Positions 8,109-28,684 of a stretch of DNA of 64,000 nt are shown one piece after another (position 1 is the stretch's first letter; the number at the start of each line of letters is the position of its first letter). The position numbers and the translations under genes were made by a program. The stretch spans positions 761,603 through 825,602 of the forward strand of contig CP064981.1 of NCBI GenBank assembly GCA_016699555.1, written 5' to 3'. The notes under the pieces were generated by a model. That model did not search any database, was not told where the DNA came from, and worked only from the letters and a program-made list of their open reading frames with translations. This DNA is from Candidatus Iainarchaeum sp. GTDB taxonomy: Archaea; Iainarchaeota; Iainarchaeia; Iainarchaeales; VGJJ01.

Positions 8109-8624
8109 TTACGAAAACATCTTGTCTTCCAATTTTTGTAGAATGTAGTCTTGGAGCGCTCCTGCTTTGTAATATTGCTTTTTGAGTTTGGGTTCCAACG
8201 AAGGAAACTGCCCTATGGTGCCACGACATTTTTTCGACCCGCAATTGCATTCCATTGCCCATTCTCGATAGCGCCCAAATTTCTCATGGGTCCACTCAGT
8301 CGTTGAATAATCAAATGTGAGTTCTTCGCCTTTCTTTACATCCCTGAGCGCAAATAGCTCATTCTCCTTTCTTATTCCACAATTGGGAGCACATGAATGA
8401 TTGATGAACACATAAGGTGCTGCAAGATCGATATATTTTTTGTCACCAATCTGCAAGGGATTGGATATCTTTTCTTTTCCGGATGCATATCTTCTCTTGA
8501 GCTCGTTCACCCCAATTCTTTCGCCGCGCATCAAACAAAGAGCTTCGCCCTTTTTTATGTTCTTGGAAGCAACAACCCCAGTTCCTTGAATGGCTGATTC
8601 AATTACTTGGATGTGATTAAACAT
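8109..8624 (-). CDS. SET domain protein-lysine methyltransferase
   Basis: 171 aa; SET signature ...NHSCAPNC... and ELTFDY, post-SET Cys cluster CNCGSKKCRG. Confidence 0.8.
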   Translation of the reverse strand: MFNHIQVIESAIQGTGVVASKNIKKGEALCLMRGERIGVNELKRRYASGKEKISNPLQIGDKKYIDLAAPYVFINHSCAPNCGIRKENELFALRDVKKGEELTFDYSTTEWTHEKFGRYREWAMECNCGSKKCRGTIGQFPSLEPKLKKQYYKAGALQDYILQKLEDKMFS

Positions 8625-10453: not shown

Positions 10454-11161
10454 TTAGGCTTTTTGGAAAAGTGCATCGACCCAAGTCACGATGATGATTC
10501 TGCCTTGGATGTCACTTATGGAAAATAACCCCAGGGATCCGCTGTCCGTACTGGCATTACGGTTATCCCCCATCACCACTACTTTTCCGCTTGGAACCCT
10601 GAATTGAGTGGTACGCAGCTGCTCCATGAGCACGTCATAATGCTGCGAATCCGCACGCTCAAGGAGGTAGGGTTCGAGGAGGAGGGAGTCATTCAGGTAT
10701 AGCTGTCCCTCCCGCAACTCCAGCTTGTCCCCCGGCAATGCAATCACGCGTTTGGCCAGGGGGATTACAGAGGCAACCTGCACGATATCCCCATGCGCAA
10801 GAGGATTATCAGCATAATAGCCCGCGATGAAGAGCACGCGCTGATTGCTTTGAAGCGTGGGATTCATGGAATTGCCCACGACTTGGACAAACGAACACGC
10901 GTGAGAATGGCAATACTTCTGATATATCGCGGGAAAGAACTCCAAACCGGCTTTGGATTCGAGGAAATAAATGCCCCCAATCGCTGCAACGAGGAGAATG
11001 AGCAAGGCCGCTCCTACTCCCAACACCCATCCATGCGATTGCATGTGCAACAGAACATGAGCGGCAATAAAAATGAAGGGATAAAAGAAAGTGCACGCAG
11101 GCGAACGCGCAGAAAAGAGAACATGGGGCATCAACGCAGTTGATACCCTTTCTCGCTCCAA
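10454..11161 (-). CDS. signal peptidase I (S26 family, Ser-Lys type)
   Basis: Box B VVGNSMNPTL, box D AKRVIALPGD, box E GDNRNASTDS; N-terminal TM anchors; true start may be an internal Met. Confidence 0.75.
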   Translation of the reverse strand: MERERVSTALMPHVLFSARSPACTFFYPFIFIAAHVLLHMQSHGWVLGVGAALLILLVAAIGGIYFLESKAGLEFFPAIYQKYCHSHACSFVQVVGNSMNPTLQSNQRVLFIAGYYADNPLAHGDIVQVASVIPLAKRVIALPGDKLELREGQLYLNDSLLLEPYLLERADSQHYDVLMEQLRTTQFRVPSGKVVVMGDNRNASTDSGSLGLFSISDIQGRIIIVTWVDALFQKA

Positions 11162-11178
11162 ACCGCCGAAACGGTTTA

Positions 11179-11262
11179 TGCACGAGGGCGGATTCGAACC
11201 GCCGAAGACACTAAGTCACCAGATCTTGAGTCTGGCGCGTTTGACCGCTTCGCTACCCGTGC
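11179..11262 (-). tRNA. tRNA-Leu (anticodon CAA), class II
   Basis: Acceptor GCACGGG/CUCGUGC + A73, D-stem GCG/CGC, anticodon stem CCAGA/UCUGG, loop CUCAAGA, variable stem-loop GAC..GUC, T-arm GGCGG-UUCGAAU-CCGCC. Confidence 0.85.
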
Positions 11263-11293
11263 ATGGGCGATTTCGTCCGCCCGATACGAGATC

Positions 11294-13946: not shown

Positions 13947-14562
13947 CCTGATTTATGTCATGGGATTGCTTTCCATCCTCCTCTTCCTGAGCGGATGCAT
14001 CACCACCGAGAATCAAGAATTCCACGCGCATGCGGATTTTGCACTATTCATCGACGGACAGCGCATGGACTTCAATCGCGCCGCATTCATGAGCGATGCG
14101 AATACGCAATTGGATGGGTTGACGCACTTGCATGATTTCAACCCTTTTGTCATCCACTACCACGCGCAAAACATCCCATTGAAGCGCTTCTTCAATAGCT
14201 TGGACATGAAATGGCAAGACGATTGCTTTACTATTGGGAACCAAACCCCATTGTGCAACGATACTGCAACGGGAAAGAGTTGGAAGCTCTATGTGAACGG
14301 CCAACTCAATCCCCAGAATGAAAATTATATCGCCAAGGACTTGGATCGCATCCTGATCGCGTATGGGAATAACACCCCCCAGGAATTGCACGACCTCTTG
14401 AATGCCGTTACGGATGTGGCATGCATCCAATCCAGCAAATGCCCCGAGCGTGGTACACCGACTAATGAGACATGCACGACTGCGGGGGGATGCTCCCTCG
14501 ACTTGAACCATCTCGCCGCAAAGACATGCATCGGCGTCGGATCCATCAAGTATTGCTTTTGA
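13939..14562 (+). CDS. secreted Cys-rich lipoprotein, hypothetical
   Basis: Signal peptide + lipobox LSGC; 12 Cys. Confidence 0.45.
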   Translation: MRSLIYVMGLLSILLFLSGCITTENQEFHAHADFALFIDGQRMDFNRAAFMSDANTQLDGLTHLHDFNPFVIHYHAQNIPLKRFFNSLDMKWQDDCFTIGNQTPLCNDTATGKSWKLYVNGQLNPQNENYIAKDLDRILIAYGNNTPQELHDLLNAVTDVACIQSSKCPERGTPTNETCTTAGGCSLDLNHLAAKTCIGVGSIKYCF

Positions 14563-14601: not shown

Positions 14602-15126
14602 ATGGAAGTACGCGGCCGCATCCAAGACATCGCTGAGACTCATCGCCTCATCGCCGAGTTGGGGGGAATCAAACTCAACACCTACGCATTCGAGGATCGC
14701 ATCTATTTTTTGCCCGGAACCACTTCACTCGAAAAAGGATACGTGCGCATCCGCTCTCCCCCGGGATATGACAATTCCCAGCGCTTTCAGATCACCAAGA
14801 AAATAACACAGGATGGGCAGCGACTGGAAGTGTATCGCAGCTTTGCCAGCGACCTCGAACGCGCAAAAGCCAAGATCGCAGGGCACTGGATCGCATGCAT
14901 CATCGCCCGAAAAGGAACGCAATACCGACTAGGCAATGGGCTGATGTATGTGGAAGAAATCGAAGAATTCGGGAATAGCATCGAAGCCCTTTACTCCAGC
15001 GAAGTCGAAGGCAGGGAATGGCTGCACCAACTGAATGCCACGGAAATATCCATGCACTCCATGCCCTTGCAATTCATGATCCATAAAAATATGCCCAAGC
15101 ATGAGCCCGCCCCAAAACCTAATTAA
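14602..15126 (+). CDS. CYTH-like domain protein (triphosphate tunnel metalloenzyme family), tentative
   Basis: N-terminal EVRGRI...E pattern reminiscent of CYTH ExExK start; 174 aa; weak. Confidence 0.35.
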   Translation: MEVRGRIQDIAETHRLIAELGGIKLNTYAFEDRIYFLPGTTSLEKGYVRIRSPPGYDNSQRFQITKKITQDGQRLEVYRSFASDLERAKAKIAGHWIACIIARKGTQYRLGNGLMYVEEIEEFGNSIEALYSSEVEGREWLHQLNATEISMHSMPLQFMIHKNMPKHEPAPKPN

Positions 15127-15148
15127 GCCCTCCAACCCCTTTTTGCGC

Positions 15149-16873
15149 ATGGCCATCAATAAAGAAATTGCAGCCATCTTCTATGCCATCGCCGATCTGC
15201 TCGACTTGCAAGGAGTCGAATGGAAACCCATTGCATTCCGCAAAGCCGCACGGACGCTGGAGAATTATTCCGAGCCCATGGACAAAATCGTCAAAGCAAA
15301 AGGAATCAAAGGCGTGATGGAACTTCCCGGAATCGGAGAAGGGATTGGAAAAAAGATCGTGCAGTACGTCGAAGAAGGAAAGATCGATGAATATGAAGAG
15401 CTGAAGAAAGAGATTCCTGCCGGCGTACGCCTCATGCTGAATGTCCCCGGAATGGGCCCCAAAAAAGCCGCTCGCCTCTACAAGGAACTCAAAATCGACT
15501 CGCTCGAAAAACTCGAGGCATTCGCCAAAGAAGGAAAAATACGCGCACTGAGCGGATTCGGAGAAAAGAGCGAGCAAGATATCCTCATGGGATTGGAGCT
15601 GGTCAAGAAAGGACAAGAACGCAAGCTCATGGGAATCATCCTCCCCTACGCGCGCGAGCTCGCAAAAAAAATCAATTCCATCCCGGGAGTGCAACGCGTC
15701 GAACTCGCGGGGAGCCTGCGCCGACGCAGAGAGACGGTCAAGGACATCGACATCCTCGCGCTCGCAAAAGATGGAAAGAAAGTCATGGATGCATTCGTGA
15801 AGCTGCCCGATGTTGAGAAAGTGGTCTCCAAAGGAGACACCAAAACAGCCGTCATCCTCAAGATGGGACTGAATTGCGACCTACGCGTGCTTTCGCCGGA
15901 AGTCTATGGCGCGGGACTGGTGCACTTCACGGGAAGCAAAGAACACAACGTCGCATTGCGCATGCTGGCCATCAAGAAAGGGATGAAATTGGACGAGTAT
16001 GGGCTCTTCGACAACAAAAGCGGCAAAAACCTCGCGTGCAAGAACGAAGAAGACGTCTATGCGCGCTTGGGCATGCAATACATCCCTCCCGAGATGCGCG
16101 AGAATACTGGCGAGATCGAGCTCGCGCAACAGAAAAAAATACCCGAGCTCATCGGCTATGACGCCATCCATGGGGATTTGCACACCCACACGAATTGGAG
16201 CGATGGCGCCAACACCACGGAAGAAATGGTCGTGCGCGCCGTAGAACTCGGATACGACTACTATGCGATTACCGACCACTCCAAGAGCGACGTCATCGCC
16301 AATGGACTGAATGAAAAACGCGTCAAAGAACACTTCAAGGAAATTGACGCGCTGCAAAAGAAATTCCCACAGATCCAATTGCTGAAAGGGGCGGAAGTAG
16401 CCATCTTGAGCAACGGGAAATTGGACTATGGCGCTGAAACCCTCAAGGAGATGGACATCGTCGTCGGAAGCATCCACTCCGGGTTCAAGACCCCACCCAA
16501 AGAGATGACCAAGCGCCTGCTCACGGCGATGGAAAATGAATACCTCACCTTTCTCGGACACCCTACCGGTAGGCTCCTGAACCAGCGCAATCCCTATGAG
16601 TATGACATCGAAAAAATACTCGAAACCGCCGCATCCAACCGCATCGCCGTCGAAGTGAATGCGTTTCCCTCGCGCATGGACTTCGACGCCGATCACATCC
16701 GGCTGGCGCTGCAAAAGAAAGTCAAGCTCGTCATCAATACCGACTCCCACTCCACCCAAAATCTGGACTTCATGGAGTTCGGCATCGCACAAGCGCGCAG
16801 GGGATGGGCGAAAAAAGAGGACGTGCTCAATGCGCTGCCCTGGAAAGCATTCCAAAGAGAAGTATTGCGTTAG
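15149..16873 (+). CDS. polX: DNA polymerase X family protein with C-terminal PHP phosphoesterase domain
   Basis: Pol beta-like HhH and nucleotidyltransferase (GSLRRRRETVKDIDIL) regions, C-terminal PHP HGDLHTHTNWSDG; start at MAINKEIAAIF. Confidence 0.85.
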   Translation: MAINKEIAAIFYAIADLLDLQGVEWKPIAFRKAARTLENYSEPMDKIVKAKGIKGVMELPGIGEGIGKKIVQYVEEGKIDEYEELKKEIPAGVRLMLNVPGMGPKKAARLYKELKIDSLEKLEAFAKEGKIRALSGFGEKSEQDILMGLELVKKGQERKLMGIILPYARELAKKINSIPGVQRVELAGSLRRRRETVKDIDILALAKDGKKVMDAFVKLPDVEKVVSKGDTKTAVILKMGLNCDLRVLSPEVYGAGLVHFTGSKEHNVALRMLAIKKGMKLDEYGLFDNKSGKNLACKNEEDVYARLGMQYIPPEMRENTGEIELAQQKKIPELIGYDAIHGDLHTHTNWSDGANTTEEMVVRAVELGYDYYAITDHSKSDVIANGLNEKRVKEHFKEIDALQKKFPQIQLLKGAEVAILSNGKLDYGAETLKEMDIVVGSIHSGFKTPPKEMTKRLLTAMENEYLTFLGHPTGRLLNQRNPYEYDIEKILETAASNRIAVEVNAFPSRMDFDADHIRLALQKKVKLVINTDSHSTQNLDFMEFGIAQARRGWAKKEDVLNALPWKAFQREVLR

Positions 16874-17150: not shown

Positions 17151-17957
17151 ATGATGTCCATCCCCGTAATGAAAACATTCACCGAAAACCTCCACCAATT
17201 ATGTATCGATTTCCAGCAGAACGTCAAAGAGAGCGAGCACCCCAGCATCGATAAGAAAGTACAGCTCTCCGCGGAGACGCTCGAACAATTCCTCCTCACC
17301 CAGCAATTCACCCCCATTCAAGAGAATACGCTCCTGAAATTGGATTCAATCGCCCAACTCGTCCCCCAAACGCAGGCGGCCTATCGCTATTACCAAGAAG
17401 ACCTGGAACGCTCCTATGCCCAAGAGCTCGTGGCCAATAACGAGTCCGAACTCGATTTCACCCACTCCCACCTGCGCCGCGAGGGATTATTGGCATCGAA
17501 AGAAGCGCATTTCTCCAACCTCAGCGAACACGATCGCGTGCTGGTCATCGGAACGGGTTATTTCCCCCTGCATGCCATGGTCTATGCCGGGCAGTTCAAT
17601 GCCAAAGTCATCGGACTCGAGACCCAGCAGCACGTCCGCGAGCATGCGACGCGTGTGGTGGAAAGCATGGAGATGGGCAACCAAATCAAGATCCAGGATA
17701 TCCGCAACCTCTATGCGCAAGCCGCCAAAGCCAATGTCATTTTCGTGTCGCGCGACATGAACGATAAAGTGCCACTCATCAATTCCCTCGCCGAACACCT
17801 CAAACCCGGAACGCGTGTGATGTGCCGCACCGGGTTTGGGTTGCGCGCCATGTTGCATGCGCACGTCCCCCACAAGCAATTGCAGGGATTCACGCAAATG
17901 GGCGTATTGGATGCAGGAAAGAGCAGCTTGCAGAGCTCGCTCTGCTTATTACGCTAA
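17151..17957 (+). CDS. nicotianamine synthase-like protein (archaeal NAS/CntL-like)
   Basis: RVLVIGTGYFPLHAMVYA ~ NAS KVAFVGSGPLPLTSIVLA; HLKPGTRVMCRTGFGLRAMLHAHV ~ NAS HL.K.MAPGA.L.LRSAHGARAFLYP.V; ~120 aa N-terminal extension. Confidence 0.6.
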   Translation: MMSIPVMKTFTENLHQLCIDFQQNVKESEHPSIDKKVQLSAETLEQFLLTQQFTPIQENTLLKLDSIAQLVPQTQAAYRYYQEDLERSYAQELVANNESELDFTHSHLRREGLLASKEAHFSNLSEHDRVLVIGTGYFPLHAMVYAGQFNAKVIGLETQQHVREHATRVVESMEMGNQIKIQDIRNLYAQAAKANVIFVSRDMNDKVPLINSLAEHLKPGTRVMCRTGFGLRAMLHAHVPHKQLQGFTQMGVLDAGKSSLQSSLCLLR

Positions 17958-17967
17958 AATAAACTCG

Positions 17968-18552
17968 TTACCGCCCACGGGAAACTGTGCGCGCGGCAAT
18001 GGTAAGGTGGTGCCCACAATGAGGACAATACTTATCCCGCCAATCCACTAATTTTTCACACGAGCGACAGCGAATAAACTTCCCAGGAATACGCTTGGGA
18101 TGCTCACGCAACCATTTTTGGGTCTGCATGAGGGATAACAATCGTTGCTCGATCTTCGCGGCATTCGGACCATAGAATATTTGGTGGTGCACCACTTCGT
18201 TGTGCTCATAAGCCAAATGCAATTCCTTTGAAATCACTCCCTTGCTCTCGACTTCCACGAGATCATGCAAGTAGATCTCCAGCACGACCTCGGGATACCG
18301 CAACTGTTCCGCTTGCTTGGTGAGAAAGAGCATGCGCTGCGTCGTCACGGCAATGACGCCACTCATGCGCGACGCGACAGGGACATTTTCCTTCACCGGA
18401 ATGCGTTGCGGCAGCATCCCAAACAAGGGCTTTTCTTCCTCTACCCATTGCGCTTCCAAGCGGAACCCATCCATTTGCATGGGGAAGAAGAATAGCACGG
18501 ACTCGTTGGGATGCAAAAAAATATGCGAGATCCATTCCATGCTCATATGCAT
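17968..18552 (-). CDS. hypothetical protein, possible PH-like N-domain with C-terminal zinc ribbon
   Basis: C-terminal CRSC-x13-CPHC; N-terminal GVIAVTTQRMLFLTK resembles bacterial PH fold; last gene of secreted-protein/SPase operon. Confidence 0.4.
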   Translation of the reverse strand: MHMSMEWISHIFLHPNESVLFFFPMQMDGFRLEAQWVEEEKPLFGMLPQRIPVKENVPVASRMSGVIAVTTQRMLFLTKQAEQLRYPEVVLEIYLHDLVEVESKGVISKELHLAYEHNEVVHHQIFYGPNAAKIEQRLLSLMQTQKWLREHPKRIPGKFIRCRSCEKLVDWRDKYCPHCGHHLTIAARTVSRGR

Positions 18553-18573
18553 GCGAGCCGGAAATTGGACTAT

Positions 18574-19113
18574 TTAATTGGAGACTGCAGGCGGGTTGGT
18601 GCCCACTACCTTGCCTATCACAAATCCCTCATCCACAAACCCATAATCCAGGCTATCAAAGCCAGCCTCGGCGTTATCCGAAATCACAAACACTTTGTGC
18701 AGCGGGACTACGCGCGAGGTAGCGGGAGAAGGATATTTGAACAAAGGAAAGGAATCCGACGTGAATGGTTGGCCGACCGGGTGCGTTAACGCTACCACTC
18801 CATTTACTGCGATATCCCCTGCCGGAGTGATTTGCACATTATCTCCAGGCAAACCAACTAAGCGCTTCACGCGCAAGCTATTGTCGACATTGAAATCGAT
18901 GATGACGATGTCATTGCGTTGCAGGGGAAAGAACGCGTAGTAATCGATCCCGATCCGGATCAAATCCCCCTCACGCAATGCGGGTTCCATCGAGTGCCCA
19001 GAAACGGATTTATCTATGCAAGGGTGAGCGCTACAATAATCGGATGCCATCGAAGCAGTCAGACAGCCGGCAAGGAAAAGGACAAGGGATAAGATCGACA
19101 GTGCGGCGCGCAT
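18574..19113 (-). CDS. signal peptidase I paralog (S26) with lipoprotein-type signal
   Basis: Box B SGHSMEPAL, box D VKRLVGLPGD, box E ISDNAEAGFDS; N-terminus MRAALSILSLVLFLAGC lipobox. Confidence 0.65.
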   Translation of the reverse strand: MRAALSILSLVLFLAGCLTASMASDYCSAHPCIDKSVSGHSMEPALREGDLIRIGIDYYAFFPLQRNDIVIIDFNVDNSLRVKRLVGLPGDNVQITPAGDIAVNGVVALTHPVGQPFTSDSFPLFKYPSPATSRVVPLHKVFVISDNAEAGFDSLDYGFVDEGFVIGKVVGTNPPAVSN

Positions 19114-19143
19114 ACGAGTAGATGTGTGCCGCAGTTTAATGCA

Positions 19144-20115
19144 TTATCTGCACACGTTCACGCACACACCGACCGTTCCGAACCACCAAGTGGGAGGAGT
19201 ATAAAGCGGGGGAGTGGGACCTGCATCGGTGGACGCGAAAGCAAGCGCATTCGCGAGCTGCGGATCGACGGATGCGAGCTTCTGCTTGCCGTCTATATCC
19301 CCAGCCGTGCTCGGGTCGCCTTCTCCGCCTGTTTCCGTTAAAGGATCAGTCCCAGTGCCAGAAGGCTCGGTAACGCCACCAGAGTAGCCGACATCGGGAC
19401 CACCCACGACGCCTCCATCCATGACGCCTACTGCGCTTACTTTACACTCACAAGTTGGACTATCAGGCGCTCCCGTGTTCTGGCATGACTCGCCAGGATT
19501 GGGACAGCTCCCTCCACACCATGTGACGGTTGGGCCCACGACCCCTGCTGGAGGGCTGGCAGTGTTCTTTTTACAGGTGGCTCCCATCCCCGTATACACT
19601 ACCCCACCCCCACCAACGTACGGGGACTGTTGCCCGTTCGGGGCGTTAATCAGATGAAACGGCGGCGGAAGCAATGGAGGGCTGGGGGGATAGACAATGG
19701 TAAAGGACTGAACCGGCACGACCGTGTGCGGAATATCAATTCCAGTGGGATAGCACATGCTCGCAGCCAAATTAGGATGGGATGCCGGGCACGAAGGAGG
19801 AGAACAAACCCCGATAGCGTTGTTGGTGCTCAACCCGCCCGAACTCGGCAGCACGAGAGGACCTACCGCCCAAGGACAGCTCAAGCGGATCAACTTATTG
19901 TTGGCCGGAGCGCCCTGGGCCAGGACGACTTTTGGAGCTAAATAATTCACTTTGACCAACCCGGGGATTTGGGATTGCACATTGATGACTTCCGTGGGCT
20001 GCAAGAACTGTATTGCAAAGACGCCAGCGACCACGAGCAATGCGACGATGACGAACGAAATCAATGGATGGAGTCGTGTCATGGTCACACCTTTAGGCAT
20101 TCTTGGTGCAGACAT
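19144..20115 (-). CDS. signal-anchored secreted Pro/Gly/Cys-rich cell-surface protein
   Basis: N-terminal hydrophobic helix with VFA-IQ cleavage-like site, Pro/Gly/Thr/Cys-rich mature region; start may be at internal Met (20082). Confidence 0.5.
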   Translation of the reverse strand: MSAPRMPKGVTMTRLHPLISFVIVALLVVAGVFAIQFLQPTEVINVQSQIPGLVKVNYLAPKVVLAQGAPANNKLIRLSCPWAVGPLVLPSSGGLSTNNAIGVCSPPSCPASHPNLAASMCYPTGIDIPHTVVPVQSFTIVYPPSPPLLPPPFHLINAPNGQQSPYVGGGGVVYTGMGATCKKNTASPPAGVVGPTVTWCGGSCPNPGESCQNTGAPDSPTCECKVSAVGVMDGGVVGGPDVGYSGGVTEPSGTGTDPLTETGGEGDPSTAGDIDGKQKLASVDPQLANALAFASTDAGPTPPLYTPPTWWFGTVGVCVNVCR

Positions 20116-20875
20116 TCACGATGCTCCCGACGTATGCAGAAAAGAATGTGATATTGTAATTGATAATCGAGCCATTGCCCGCGTAGACGGGAGACAGGAC
20201 ATAGGACATCCCCAATCCGCCCGGTTCGAAATAGACGCCCTTAGAGGTATAAGCGGTCCCGCCAATGGTGGGGCAAGCAATATCGGACGCGCCATTAGGG
20301 CAATTAGCAGCGGAGTAATTATTCATCAGATCCTGCAAGGAAAAAGGTTGCCCGGGCGCAGCGGTCGCAATCGGCCCCCCGGCCACAGGACAGCGCATGT
20401 AAATGGTATCATTCCCGCCTGCAGCCGCCAACACCTGCGCCAACGTCCAGGTTTCGAGATGATTCGCATTCAACGCCACGTTCGCCGTGTTCGCGGTAAC
20501 TGCACTTTCCGCAACGACACCCGAACCCGTTCCCCATGCAGCGGCTTGCACGAACTTCTGCATCGTGGCTAAAGGTTCCGGAACCGGAACGCCTGCAACG
20601 GTTGGCGTGATTGGCGCGGGCCGACCGGAGGGATAACCGCTAAAGGCTTGGGTGAAATCGATATCGCCCACGCGATGACTGACAGTGCCACTTCCGGGAG
20701 TCGATCCGGCTTGCGCGCTGACCCCGACGATGAGGCCCAAAACGACCAATCCCGCGATCGCCACCACCAGCAAGTGCGTGGGGATTGAAACAGAAGGCAT
20801 TGCAGGCGTCTGCGTGGAAGTCGCATCTTGTTTCGAATGATTTTTTGCAGCAAAGCGTCCGGACATGTGACACAC
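20093..20875 (-). CDS. signal-anchored secreted Gly/Ala/Thr-rich protein
   Basis: N-terminal TM helix LLVVAIAGLVVLGLIVGVSA-QAG (AXA site). Confidence 0.5.
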   Translation of the reverse strand: MCHMSGRFAAKNHSKQDATSTQTPAMPSVSIPTHLLVVAIAGLVVLGLIVGVSAQAGSTPGSGTVSHRVGDIDFTQAFSGYPSGRPAPITPTVAGVPVPEPLATMQKFVQAAAWGTGSGVVAESAVTANTANVALNANHLETWTLAQVLAAAGGNDTIYMRCPVAGGPIATAAPGQPFSLQDLMNNYSAANCPNGASDIACPTIGGTAYTSKGVYFEPGGLGMSYVLSPVYAGNGSIINYNITFFSAYVGSIVNVCTKNA

Positions 20876-20940
20876 CTATGCATGAGGGATTATTTCCGCC
20901 TATAAATACCTTGCTTCACGCACAGGCAAAACAAACCCCC

Positions 20941-27811: not shown

Positions 27812-28684
27812 ATGATAGGTATGGCATTGGACTTGAATGCATTCGTCTATGACAATTTCATCCGCCCGATGATCGATCCCAGCGTGCAGGGATACAATCC
27901 CGTCAACACAATCGTGTATGGGATCATCCTCCTGGGAATCGCATTCTATGTCATCTATCCCTTCCTCAACAAGCACGGGATCAAATTCGACTTCGCCTTC
28001 TTGCAGATGCTTTTACCCTACATCGTCTTCGGCAGCAGCCTGCGCGTGTTGGAGGACCAACAACTACTCATGCGCAGCGCGAACCCGCTCGAGTTCGGAT
28101 TCTATCTCTTCACTCCTGGGATTTGGTTCCTCACATTCGCATTCGTCGCCATCGGGATGCTCATCGCGTGGTTCGCGCAGAAGAAATTCAATCACCGATT
28201 CCACACCATCGCAACCCTCTTCGGCGCGCTCGTCGCTGCTCCGCTAGTGCTCTACAATCTATTGCAATTCACGGAATGGATTGCACTTCTCGCGATCGTC
28301 GCGCTCGCGGGCATCCTCTCTTATGCCGTATTCTGGATCGGCAAACGCCAGCAGTGGAGATTCTTGGAGAACCCACTCGCCAAAGCCGCATTCTTCGGAC
28401 AGCTCCTCGATGCATCCGCGACATTCATCGCATTGCAATTCTTTTCCTGCGGCGAACAGCACTTCCTGCCACGCTTACTCTTCGGAGCGTTTGGCCCGGT
28501 TTCTTTCTTCTTCGTGAAGATTCCGCTGATGCTGTTGGTGCTGCATTACATCCACAAGGAATTCATGCACGACGAAAAAGCCGATAAGAACCTGCTGGGA
28601 TTCATCCTCCTCTTCCTCGCCATTTTGGGTTTTGCCACGGGGATGAGGGATTTATTGACAGTGGCAGTGGGAACGTGCAATTAA
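27812..28684 (+). CDS. archaeal polytopic membrane protein (DUF63-like)
   Basis: ~8 TM helices; N-terminal Y..F..P...GYN.VNT.VYGIILL resembles DUF63. Confidence 0.4.
   Translation: MIGMALDLNAFVYDNFIRPMIDPSVQGYNPVNTIVYGIILLGIAFYVIYPFLNKHGIKFDFAFLQMLLPYIVFGSSLRVLEDQQLLMRSANPLEFGFYLFTPGIWFLTFAFVAIGMLIAWFAQKKFNHRFHTIATLFGALVAAPLVLYNLLQFTEWIALLAIVALAGILSYAVFWIGKRQQWRFLENPLAKAAFFGQLLDASATFIALQFFSCGEQHFLPRLLFGAFGPVSFFFVKIPLMLLVLHYIHKEFMHDEKADKNLLGFILLFLAILGFATGMRDLLTVAVGTCN

Follow-up and report, generated by a model that had tools for sequence, protein, structure and literature searches.

A second bacterial-type signal peptidase I beside a pair of orphan, putatively exported proteins in a DPANN archaeon

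Does a bacterial-type signal peptidase that is encoded beside two orphan genes in an archaeon serve the products of those genes? The question is raised by a 64,000-nucleotide (nt) stretch of DNA from Candidatus Iainarchaeum sp. (assembly GCA_016699555.1, contig CP064981.1, positions 761,603 to 825,602). We refer to this whole stretch as the window, and all coordinates are window positions unless a related locus is named. Iainarchaeum is placed in the DPANN group (Nanobdellati), and the genes of the window, which include those for PolX-PHP, DinB, thioredoxin, nicotianamine synthase (NAS)-like, DUF63/AliA_AliB, and SET-domain proteins, are consistent with an archaeon. Directly downstream of two orphan genes, here called A and B, lies a gene for a type I signal peptidase (SPase I) of family S26, the S26 paralog, followed by a gene for a PH-like/zinc (Zn)-ribbon protein (PH/Zn). 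From its sequence, the S26 paralog is a true P-type SPase I, putatively active. A dedicated or preferential link between this enzyme and A and B is the reading that we tentatively favor.

The four genes correspond to open reading frames (ORFs) on the minus strand at 20093-20875, 19144-20115, 18574-19113, and 17968-18552, where an earlier reading of the window from its letters alone (the sequence-only reading) had placed them. Using orthologs and upstream signals, we refined the start of gene A to the ATG at 20866; the resulting product of 257 amino acids (aa; 20093-20866) equals public protein P0014. The start of gene B was refined to the ATG at 20082 (19144-20082; 312 aa), where the N termini of orthologs read MRLHP. 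Both A and B have a GGTG 6 to 7 nt upstream of the ATG. The PH/Zn gene was refined to start at the ATG at 18546 (MSMEW), giving 192 aa from 17968-18546. Genes A and B are annotated as the hypothetical proteins IPJ89_04220 and IPJ89_04215, respectively. When compared with two relatives, all four genes had nonsynonymous divergence (pN) of 0.13 to 0.36 and synonymous divergence (pS) of 0.66 to 0.80. Since pN is far below pS, the four genes are real, coding, and under purifying selection.

Profile searches bore out the assignment of the 179-aa product of 18574-19113 to the S26 peptidases. It matched PF10502 with 71.6 bits (cutoff, 22.9; E value, 1e-19) and TIGR02227, the bacterial SPase I equivalog, with 82 bits (cutoff, 47), so that both curated cutoffs were exceeded. 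The archaeal SPase I model TIGR02228 gave 15.6 bits (cutoff, 51.85), matching the N-terminal anchor only. We aligned the protein with Staphylococcus aureus SpsB (structure, PDB 4wvh), in which the serine column is confirmed by the S36A mutant entry 4wvg. Ser41 of box B (GHSMEP; codon 18991-18993) aligned with catalytic Ser36, and Lys83 of box D (VKRLVGLPGD; codon 18865-18867) aligned with catalytic Lys77. Box E, SDNAEAGFDSLDYGF, aligned with GDNREVSKDSRAFG of SpsB. Residues D146, N147, D153, and S154 of this box are conserved; it deviates by a Gly-to-Ser change (SDN) in most lineages and an Arg-to-Leu change (DSL) in several. The Ser and the Lys were kept in all full-length orthologs and in the group of the second SPase of the window. 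The wider peptidase alignments also contain one N-terminally truncated fragment and a Dehalococcoidia sequence, the latter being the only sequence without the Lys, which it replaces with His. The sequence-only reading had named the loss of Ser or Lys as evidence that would count against it, and in the alignment to SpsB the dyad is intact.

The N terminus of the S26 paralog has a hydropathy peak over residues 1 to 25, with equivalent segments in the orthologs, and with this hydrophobic anchor the catalytic domain is predicted to be extracellular. In the public annotation (P0001; 138 aa), the protein starts only at the internal Met42 and therefore lacks both the membrane anchor and catalytic Ser41. 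Ortholog lengths of 182 to 200 aa favor the longer ORF. Identities as TraF, SodX, or an archaeal SPase were rejected, as the scores of these models were far below cutoff.

A second SPase I had been noted at 10454-11161 (minus strand), and its existence was confirmed by PF10502 (4e-29) and by the boxes GNSMNP and AKRVIALPGD. Translation of this gene probably begins at Met40 (11044), as in the ortholog from related locus L002, rather than at the TTG at 11161, and the gene would then span 10454-11044. A tRNA-Leu(CAA) gene that is 99% identical in L002 lies directly upstream (11178-11263, minus strand). The two SPase copies are 27% identical to each other. Both SPase groups (including the L002 gene at 14731-15318) have an invariant C-x4-C motif immediately ahead of box B, as well as a YY motif on its other side, and alignment showed neither motif in the nearest bacterial homologs. 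Because the two copies have these motifs in common and the bacterial homologs lack them, they are in-lineage paralogs of bacterial type. The duplication thus took place within the lineage, which leaves room for one copy to specialize. The C-x4-C may form a lineage-specific disulfide or metal site by the active site. The nearest bacterial homologs were one Dehalococcoidia protein and housekeeping lepB genes in an rplS-lepB-ylqF-rnhB context, a gene order from which we infer a Firmicutes-like source for those lepB homologs. The S26 paralog scored lower than the other SPase with both PF10502 (72 versus 102 bits) and TIGR02227 (82 versus 108 bits). Archaeal SPase I keeps the residues of the endoplasmic reticulum (ER) type, with His instead of Lys (reviewed in PMC2913515), so it was fair to describe two Ser-Lys enzymes as atypical for archaea; both copies are indeed P-type. 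No archaeal-type SPase was seen among the genes within the window, and our literature search found no paper on P-type signal peptidases in Iainarchaeota/Diapherotrites.

The S26 paralog had also been described as bearing a lipoprotein-type N terminus. For the window itself this holds: MRAALSILSLVLFLAGC resembles a textbook lipoprotein signal, with the lipobox LAGC. Across lineages it holds only in part: four of six have the lipobox Cys, within LAGC in the window, VSGC in P0002, and WSGC in L001 and L007, the last form being noncanonical at -3. In L002 and L005, the Cys is replaced by Val or Tyr. The window also encodes, at 27812-28684 (plus strand), a DUF63/AliA_AliB homolog (PF01889, 2.5e-54), which belongs to a recently described family of archaeal lipoprotein lipidation enzymes. 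AliA and predicted lipoproteins are reportedly common in DPANN archaea (PMC12462473). Because this gene is present, the organism may make lipobox lipoproteins, and lipidation of the S26 paralog is possible in this genome. The N-terminal segment as such is most reasonably regarded as tethering the protein to the membrane.

What might such an enzyme cleave? Near the N terminus, proteins A and B each have one hydrophobic segment, behind which small residues occupy positions -3 and -1, and the AXA-like sites reported for both proteins are present (GVSA↓QAG in A and GVFA↓IQ in B, with the arrow marking the candidate cleavage point). Protein A is an orphan that would be exported or membrane anchored, as judged from an alignment of eight homologs and from hydropathy. 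Its N terminus, M-P/S-G/Q-R-F-x-x-K (M1, R4, F5, and K8 invariant), is followed by a variable Ser/Thr-rich tail. After this 29-residue n-region comes a single 20-residue hydrophobic segment (approximately residues 30 to 49). The signal or anchor segment with the candidate V-S-A↓Q site at its end spans residues 30 to 51 (20714-20779, minus strand). The first half of the hydrophobic segment varies, and the second half is invariant (LVxLGLIVGV), followed by x-A-Q; V-x-A↓Q is found in all eight homologs and, as IVVAQ, in the divergent P0027. The 12 residues before the candidate site and the Gln at +1, a stretch that an SPase I binds, are invariant. Further along, a block at residues 83 to 123 (20498-20620, minus strand; PAPITPTVAGVPVPEPLATMQKFVQAAAWGTGSGVVAESAV) is identical in all 41 positions across the eight homologs, which are 65 to 79% identical outside it. 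Since third codon positions vary within this block, the constraint, a strong one, acts on the protein. Protein A has four invariant Cys and ends in VGxxVNVCTKN. A Tat signal was rejected for A, as GRFAAK contains only one Arg and is separated from the hydrophobic segment by approximately 20 residues.

Protein B has a more ordinary putative signal peptide, with the short n-region MTR and a 17-residue h-region before GVFA↓IQ. Its x-A site shifts in position among the orthologs, of which five came from the protein search and one from locus L005. B contains 12 invariant Cys, including those in LSCPW, GVCSPPSCPASHP, and WCGGSCP...C...C.C. Its center is Gly-rich, of low complexity, and variable, while the C terminus, LYTPxTWW..GVCVN[VI]C[RK], is invariant. 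The composition of B (12.5% Gly, 13.1% Pro, and 3.8% Cys) is well above the background (6.3% Gly, 4.6% Pro, and 1.0% Cys), and B is a putatively exported orphan. The description of both proteins as Pro/Gly/Cys-rich is therefore apt for B but overstated for A, which is rich in Ala, Gly, Ser, and Thr, has few charged residues, and contains 1.6% Cys (four residues). No gene of the region evolves faster than B, which has 37% identity to its L002 counterpart; the other 20 genes compared have identities of 40 to 95%. B was the only gene to stand out in this 21-gene comparison.

Neither A nor B matched Pfam or NCBIfam, even at an E value of ≤1, and PDB profile searches returned nothing or Gly-linker noise only. 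Searches of PHROG and PADLOC gave no match for either protein; a defense-system or viral origin was rejected, with no PHROG, PADLOC, or PDB match. The A family comprises nine proteins in 5.8 billion clusters, all from Iainarchaeum-like contigs. When 1.84 billion representatives at 50% identity were searched exhaustively with a profile, only the A family itself (two clusters) and low-complexity matches came back. By reading the N termini, we also rejected a class III (type IV pilin-like) signal peptide for both proteins: the charged residues of A lie at least 18 residues before the hydrophobic segment, B begins MTRLHP without a Gly/Ala site, and the small-residue sites of both come after rather than before the hydrophobic segment.

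The two proteins may be related to each other. In hhalign, residues 143 to 195 of A aligned with residues 62 to 115 of B (..N..I.L.CP.A.GP....CP..; E value, 0.002; probability, 14.6%), and in four of five lineages, Smith-Waterman alignment arrived at these regions too (z scores, 1.4 to 3.4). Both also carry VG-x-x-V-N-V-C at the C terminus (A, 20107-20130; B, 19150-19173; both minus strand). The pattern VG..V[NR][VIA]C, which was defined post hoc, occurs only at these two C termini when the window is translated in all six frames, with 0.01 occurrences expected. These data are suggestive of distant paralogs or of a shared assembly motif. Taken together, export, cleavage, surface location, interaction between A and B, and the assignment of peptidase to substrate are all inferred from features of the proteins' sequences.

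The fourth gene, PH/Zn, encodes a protein with no hydrophobic segment, which we consider probably cytoplasmic. The PH-like/Zn-ribbon label given to it stands in part. In its favor, the C-terminal CxxC-x10-CxxC is invariant (C160, C163, C174, and C177, numbered from the Met at 18546). Against it, the domain matches were all below cutoff: bPH_3 (PF14470), the match behind a PH/GRAM-like N-terminal domain, reached 19.8 bits where the gathering cutoff is 23 (E value, 1e-3), and several Zn-ribbon Pfam models matched at 1e-4 to 1e-2. Identity of PH/Zn among lineages is 61 to 77%. Of the four genes, this one has the weakest tie to the rest of the cluster.

We then considered whether the four genes form a single module, as the sequence-only reading had proposed. 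Most genes of the window (approximately 15) have a TATA-like A/T box 24 to 32 nt before the ATG and lack a Shine-Dalgarno sequence, a geometry expected for leaderless archaeal mRNAs; A and B, with their GGTG, are exceptions. Upstream of A, a B-recognition element (BRE)/TATA-like element, AAGGTATTTATA (20901-20912, minus strand), lies approximately 38 nt before the ATG and is invariant in six lineages, while the spacer is otherwise variable. Between A and B, the distance in relatives ranges from a 4-nt overlap to a 13-nt gap (-4 to +13), and by this arrangement A and B are translationally coupled, the only tightly coupled pair of the cluster. The S26 paralog has its own semiconserved A/T box approximately 25 nt before the ATG (CATTAAAC at 19134-19141, minus strand; AATAAAC and ATATAAT are other forms among the five lineages), possibly a separate promoter yielding a leaderless mRNA. 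For PH/Zn, the center of a TATA-like box at 18571-18578 (minus strand) lies approximately 28 nt before the ATG, and the box shares nucleotides with the stop codon of S26. Its core, TTA[AT]AT, is present in five of five aligned lineages, as ATTAAATA in four and ATTATATT in L007. Because this box is kept even in lineages with the S26 stop codon at another place, PH/Zn appears to have its own promoter. As the S26 and PH/Zn genes each have a TATA-like box, the cluster is probably three transcription units (A-B, S26, and PH/Zn) and not one operon. Read-through is conceivable because no T-run separates the genes, B and S26 being 30 nt apart on the same strand.

Is the S26 paralog then dedicated to A and B, or at least partial to them? 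We put a dedicated or preferential link at somewhat less than an even chance. In its favor, an intact and duplicated peptidase lies directly downstream of the sole two members of a putatively exported orphan pair, the presumptive cleavage region of A is invariant, and the paralog is the poorer fit of the two copies to the family model. Under this reading, A and B of a clade-specific cluster, both poor in charged residues, would be exported through Sec by way of their N-terminal signal or anchor segments and, probably being distant paralogs, would end together on the cell surface. The shared C-terminal VGxxVNVC, as a presumed beta-strand motif, would be a likely point of contact or disulfide formation between them. 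The S26 paralog, a membrane-tethered Ser-Lys enzyme that would have arisen by duplication of the lineage's other P-type SPase, would most likely prefer its neighbors, cleaving B at the x-A site, whose position varies, and perhaps also A at the invariant V-x-A↓Q. PH/Zn, probably cytoplasmic and separately promoted, may bind the cytoplasmic N-tail of A or may be unrelated.

Several observations weigh against this link or weaken the sequence-only reading. A long n-region with a conserved motif, followed by a transmembrane segment that is itself conserved, makes an uncleaved type II membrane anchor at least as good a match for A as a removable signal peptide. The separate TATA-like box of the S26 gene speaks against taking its cotranscription with A and B for granted, and what had been called a four-gene module is probably three transcription units. 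The lipobox Cys is not common to all lineages. Identity to L002 is 61% for the S26 paralog versus 62% for the other SPase, so the paralog diverges no faster. Searches of Pfam and NCBIfam showed no similarity of A or B to TasA/camelysin (Peptidase_M73) or TapA. The proposal that A and B are fiber, filament, or adhesin subunits found no supporting evidence, and the AlphaFold2 (AF2) models of A and B were unusable (pLDDT of 44 and 40, respectively), giving no structural support for a fiber, an adhesin, or a complex.

Gene order adds little to the case. The sequence-only reading had held that a gene order conserved in no relative would speak against it, and the order was kept in every relative recovered, all of them close and syntenic. 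The series DinB, A, B, S26, PH/Zn, and the reversed NAS-like gene is complete in the window and in L001, L002-4, L005, and L007; the short contigs L006, L008, L013, and L014 carry only DinB and/or A and then the start of B. The order of A, B, S26, and PH/Zn was counted in six lineages, with short gaps; that between B and S26 is 26 to 34 nt in every lineage, on the same strand. However, the relatives are collinear across the whole 12 to 17 kb compared, with shared synteny put at more than 15 kb. No locus with broken synteny was found among GTDB species representatives or in scans of Joint Genome Institute (JGI) metagenomes; the GTDB species representatives contained a single locus only, and the JGI metagenomes, scanned twice (once with the PH/Zn alignment and once with the S26-paralog alignment), gave no match. 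Because the relatives are close and syntenic and no broken synteny was found, the conserved order carries little independent weight. A "divergence hotspot," in which the four genes would be far more diverged than the genes around them, was likewise dropped as evidence of coevolution, given the 40 to 95% background of the 21-gene comparison and the equal divergence of the other SPase.

It is quite possible, although on balance doubtful, that the S26 paralog is a second general-purpose SPase I whose position by A and B is incidental and frozen by synteny in a young clade. The A/T box at leaderless distance (as at most window genes), the collinearity of the whole region in all relatives, and the equal rates at which both SPases diverge all fit this explanation. 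Furthermore, there is no archaeal-type SPase in the window, so both copies may serve general secretion. Bacillus and Streptomyces have several Sip paralogs with overlapping specificity. It accounts less well for the placement of two putatively exported, clade-restricted proteins directly upstream on the same strand, at a short gap in every lineage, or for the invariance of the A cleavage region. The lower model scores of the paralog and the Ser for Gly in its box E GDN also suggest a shifted function.

An unlikely variant is that A is an uncleaved N-in/C-out anchor whose tail contacts PH/Zn, with B alone being cleaved and held on A by the C-terminal Cys strand. The invariant N-terminal MPGRFxxK and the conserved second half of the transmembrane segment of A are in keeping with such a role, as are the ordinary and variable signal peptide of B, the C-terminal VGxxVNVC common to A and B, and the conserved, putatively cytoplasmic PH/Zn. 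However, the scheme is purely inferential, the structure models being unusable, and V-x-A↓Q of A fits the -3/-1 rule of SPase I perfectly.

A nonproteolytic assembly chaperone for A and B, like SipA/LepA of the Streptococcus pyogenes pilus island, another S26-fold protein encoded by surface genes, is very hard to credit: SipA/LepA is among the PDB sequence matches (4k8w and 4n31; E value, ~3e-7) and the S26 gene does adjoin putative surface-protein genes, but SipA/LepA lacks the catalytic residues and works with sortases, whereas here Ser and Lys are kept in all full-length orthologs, no sortase gene is nearby, and neither A nor B has a conserved LPXTG.

Outside the cluster itself, the NAS-like gene, with a methyltransferase fold (17151-17957, plus strand), is convergent with it and 95% identical to its L002 counterpart; this gene and the one for a KaiC-like ATPase are the most conserved of the region. 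At the other extreme, apart from B, the most diverged product is a hypothetical protein encoded next to the HhH-GPD gene (14020-14523, plus strand, versus 12665-13363 in L002; 207/232 aa), with 40% identity. A SET-domain protein (PF00856, 6e-16) is encoded at 8109-8624 (minus strand).

How does the favored link between the S26 paralog and A and B compare with known systems? In general terms, P-type paralogs of Gram-positive bacteria (SipS/T/U/V and SpsB) share boxes B, D, and E, the single N-terminal anchor, and the small size with the S26 paralog, and B. subtilis, with SipS/T/U/V, also has more than one P-type paralog per genome (two here). Unlike those enzymes, ours has an archaeal host, and both copies carry C-x4-C before box B and YY. 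In conjugation, TraF is an S26 peptidase that trims and cyclizes the TrbC pilin. The likeness to TraF lies in an S26 peptidase with a single dedicated substrate there and conserved C-terminal ends of A and B here; the differences are a TIGR02771 score of 25 bits (cutoff, 100) and no conjugation genes nearby. Haloferax volcanii Sec11a and Sec11b are likewise two SPase I paralogs within one archaeon, possibly differing in substrate preference (PMC2913515). Unlike these ER-type enzymes, which have His for Lys, the S26 paralog has the Lys and misses the TIGR02228 cutoff.

The sequence-only reading had likened the locus to SipW-TasA. The tapA-sipW-tasA operon of B. subtilis includes a dedicated signal peptidase for biofilm fiber proteins (PMC10269814). 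The likeness is that an additional SPase I gene adjoins genes for (here putatively) exported proteins that it could mature. However, SipW is of the ER/archaeal type (Ser-His) and the S26 paralog is P-type (Ser-Lys), so the likeness is one of layout only. Moreover, A and B show no similarity to TasA/camelysin and TapA, and S26 seemingly has its own promoter. Thus, the comparison survives for the arrangement of the genes and fails for both the enzyme type and the neighboring proteins.

A more ambitious picture can be drawn, in which A and B would be two subunits of a disulfide-stabilized surface structure of Iainarchaeum-like DPANN archaea (a filament, adhesin, or contact device), matured by the duplicated Ser-Lys SPase and tied to the cytoplasm through the N-tail of A and PH/Zn. 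We regard this picture as quite unlikely. If true, it would add to archaea a new pathway of surface assembly, centered on a peptidase acquired by horizontal transfer.

The S26 family is well known, the host domain is unusual, and the cluster is modest, with no new kind of system. In practical terms, the public annotation of the S26 gene is incomplete at the N terminus and misses the catalytic serine. Beyond this, the 1 Mb genome of a DPANN archaeon has retained two bacterial-type Ser-Lys SPases, one of them encoded beside the orphan pair A and B. If the favored link is untrue, these are ordinary paralogous SPases adjoining hypothetical proteins. If it is true, a horizontally acquired secretion enzyme would have been duplicated and specialized for lineage-specific surface proteins, and the locus would offer candidate proteins for the cell surface or for host contact in a group that has not been cultured.

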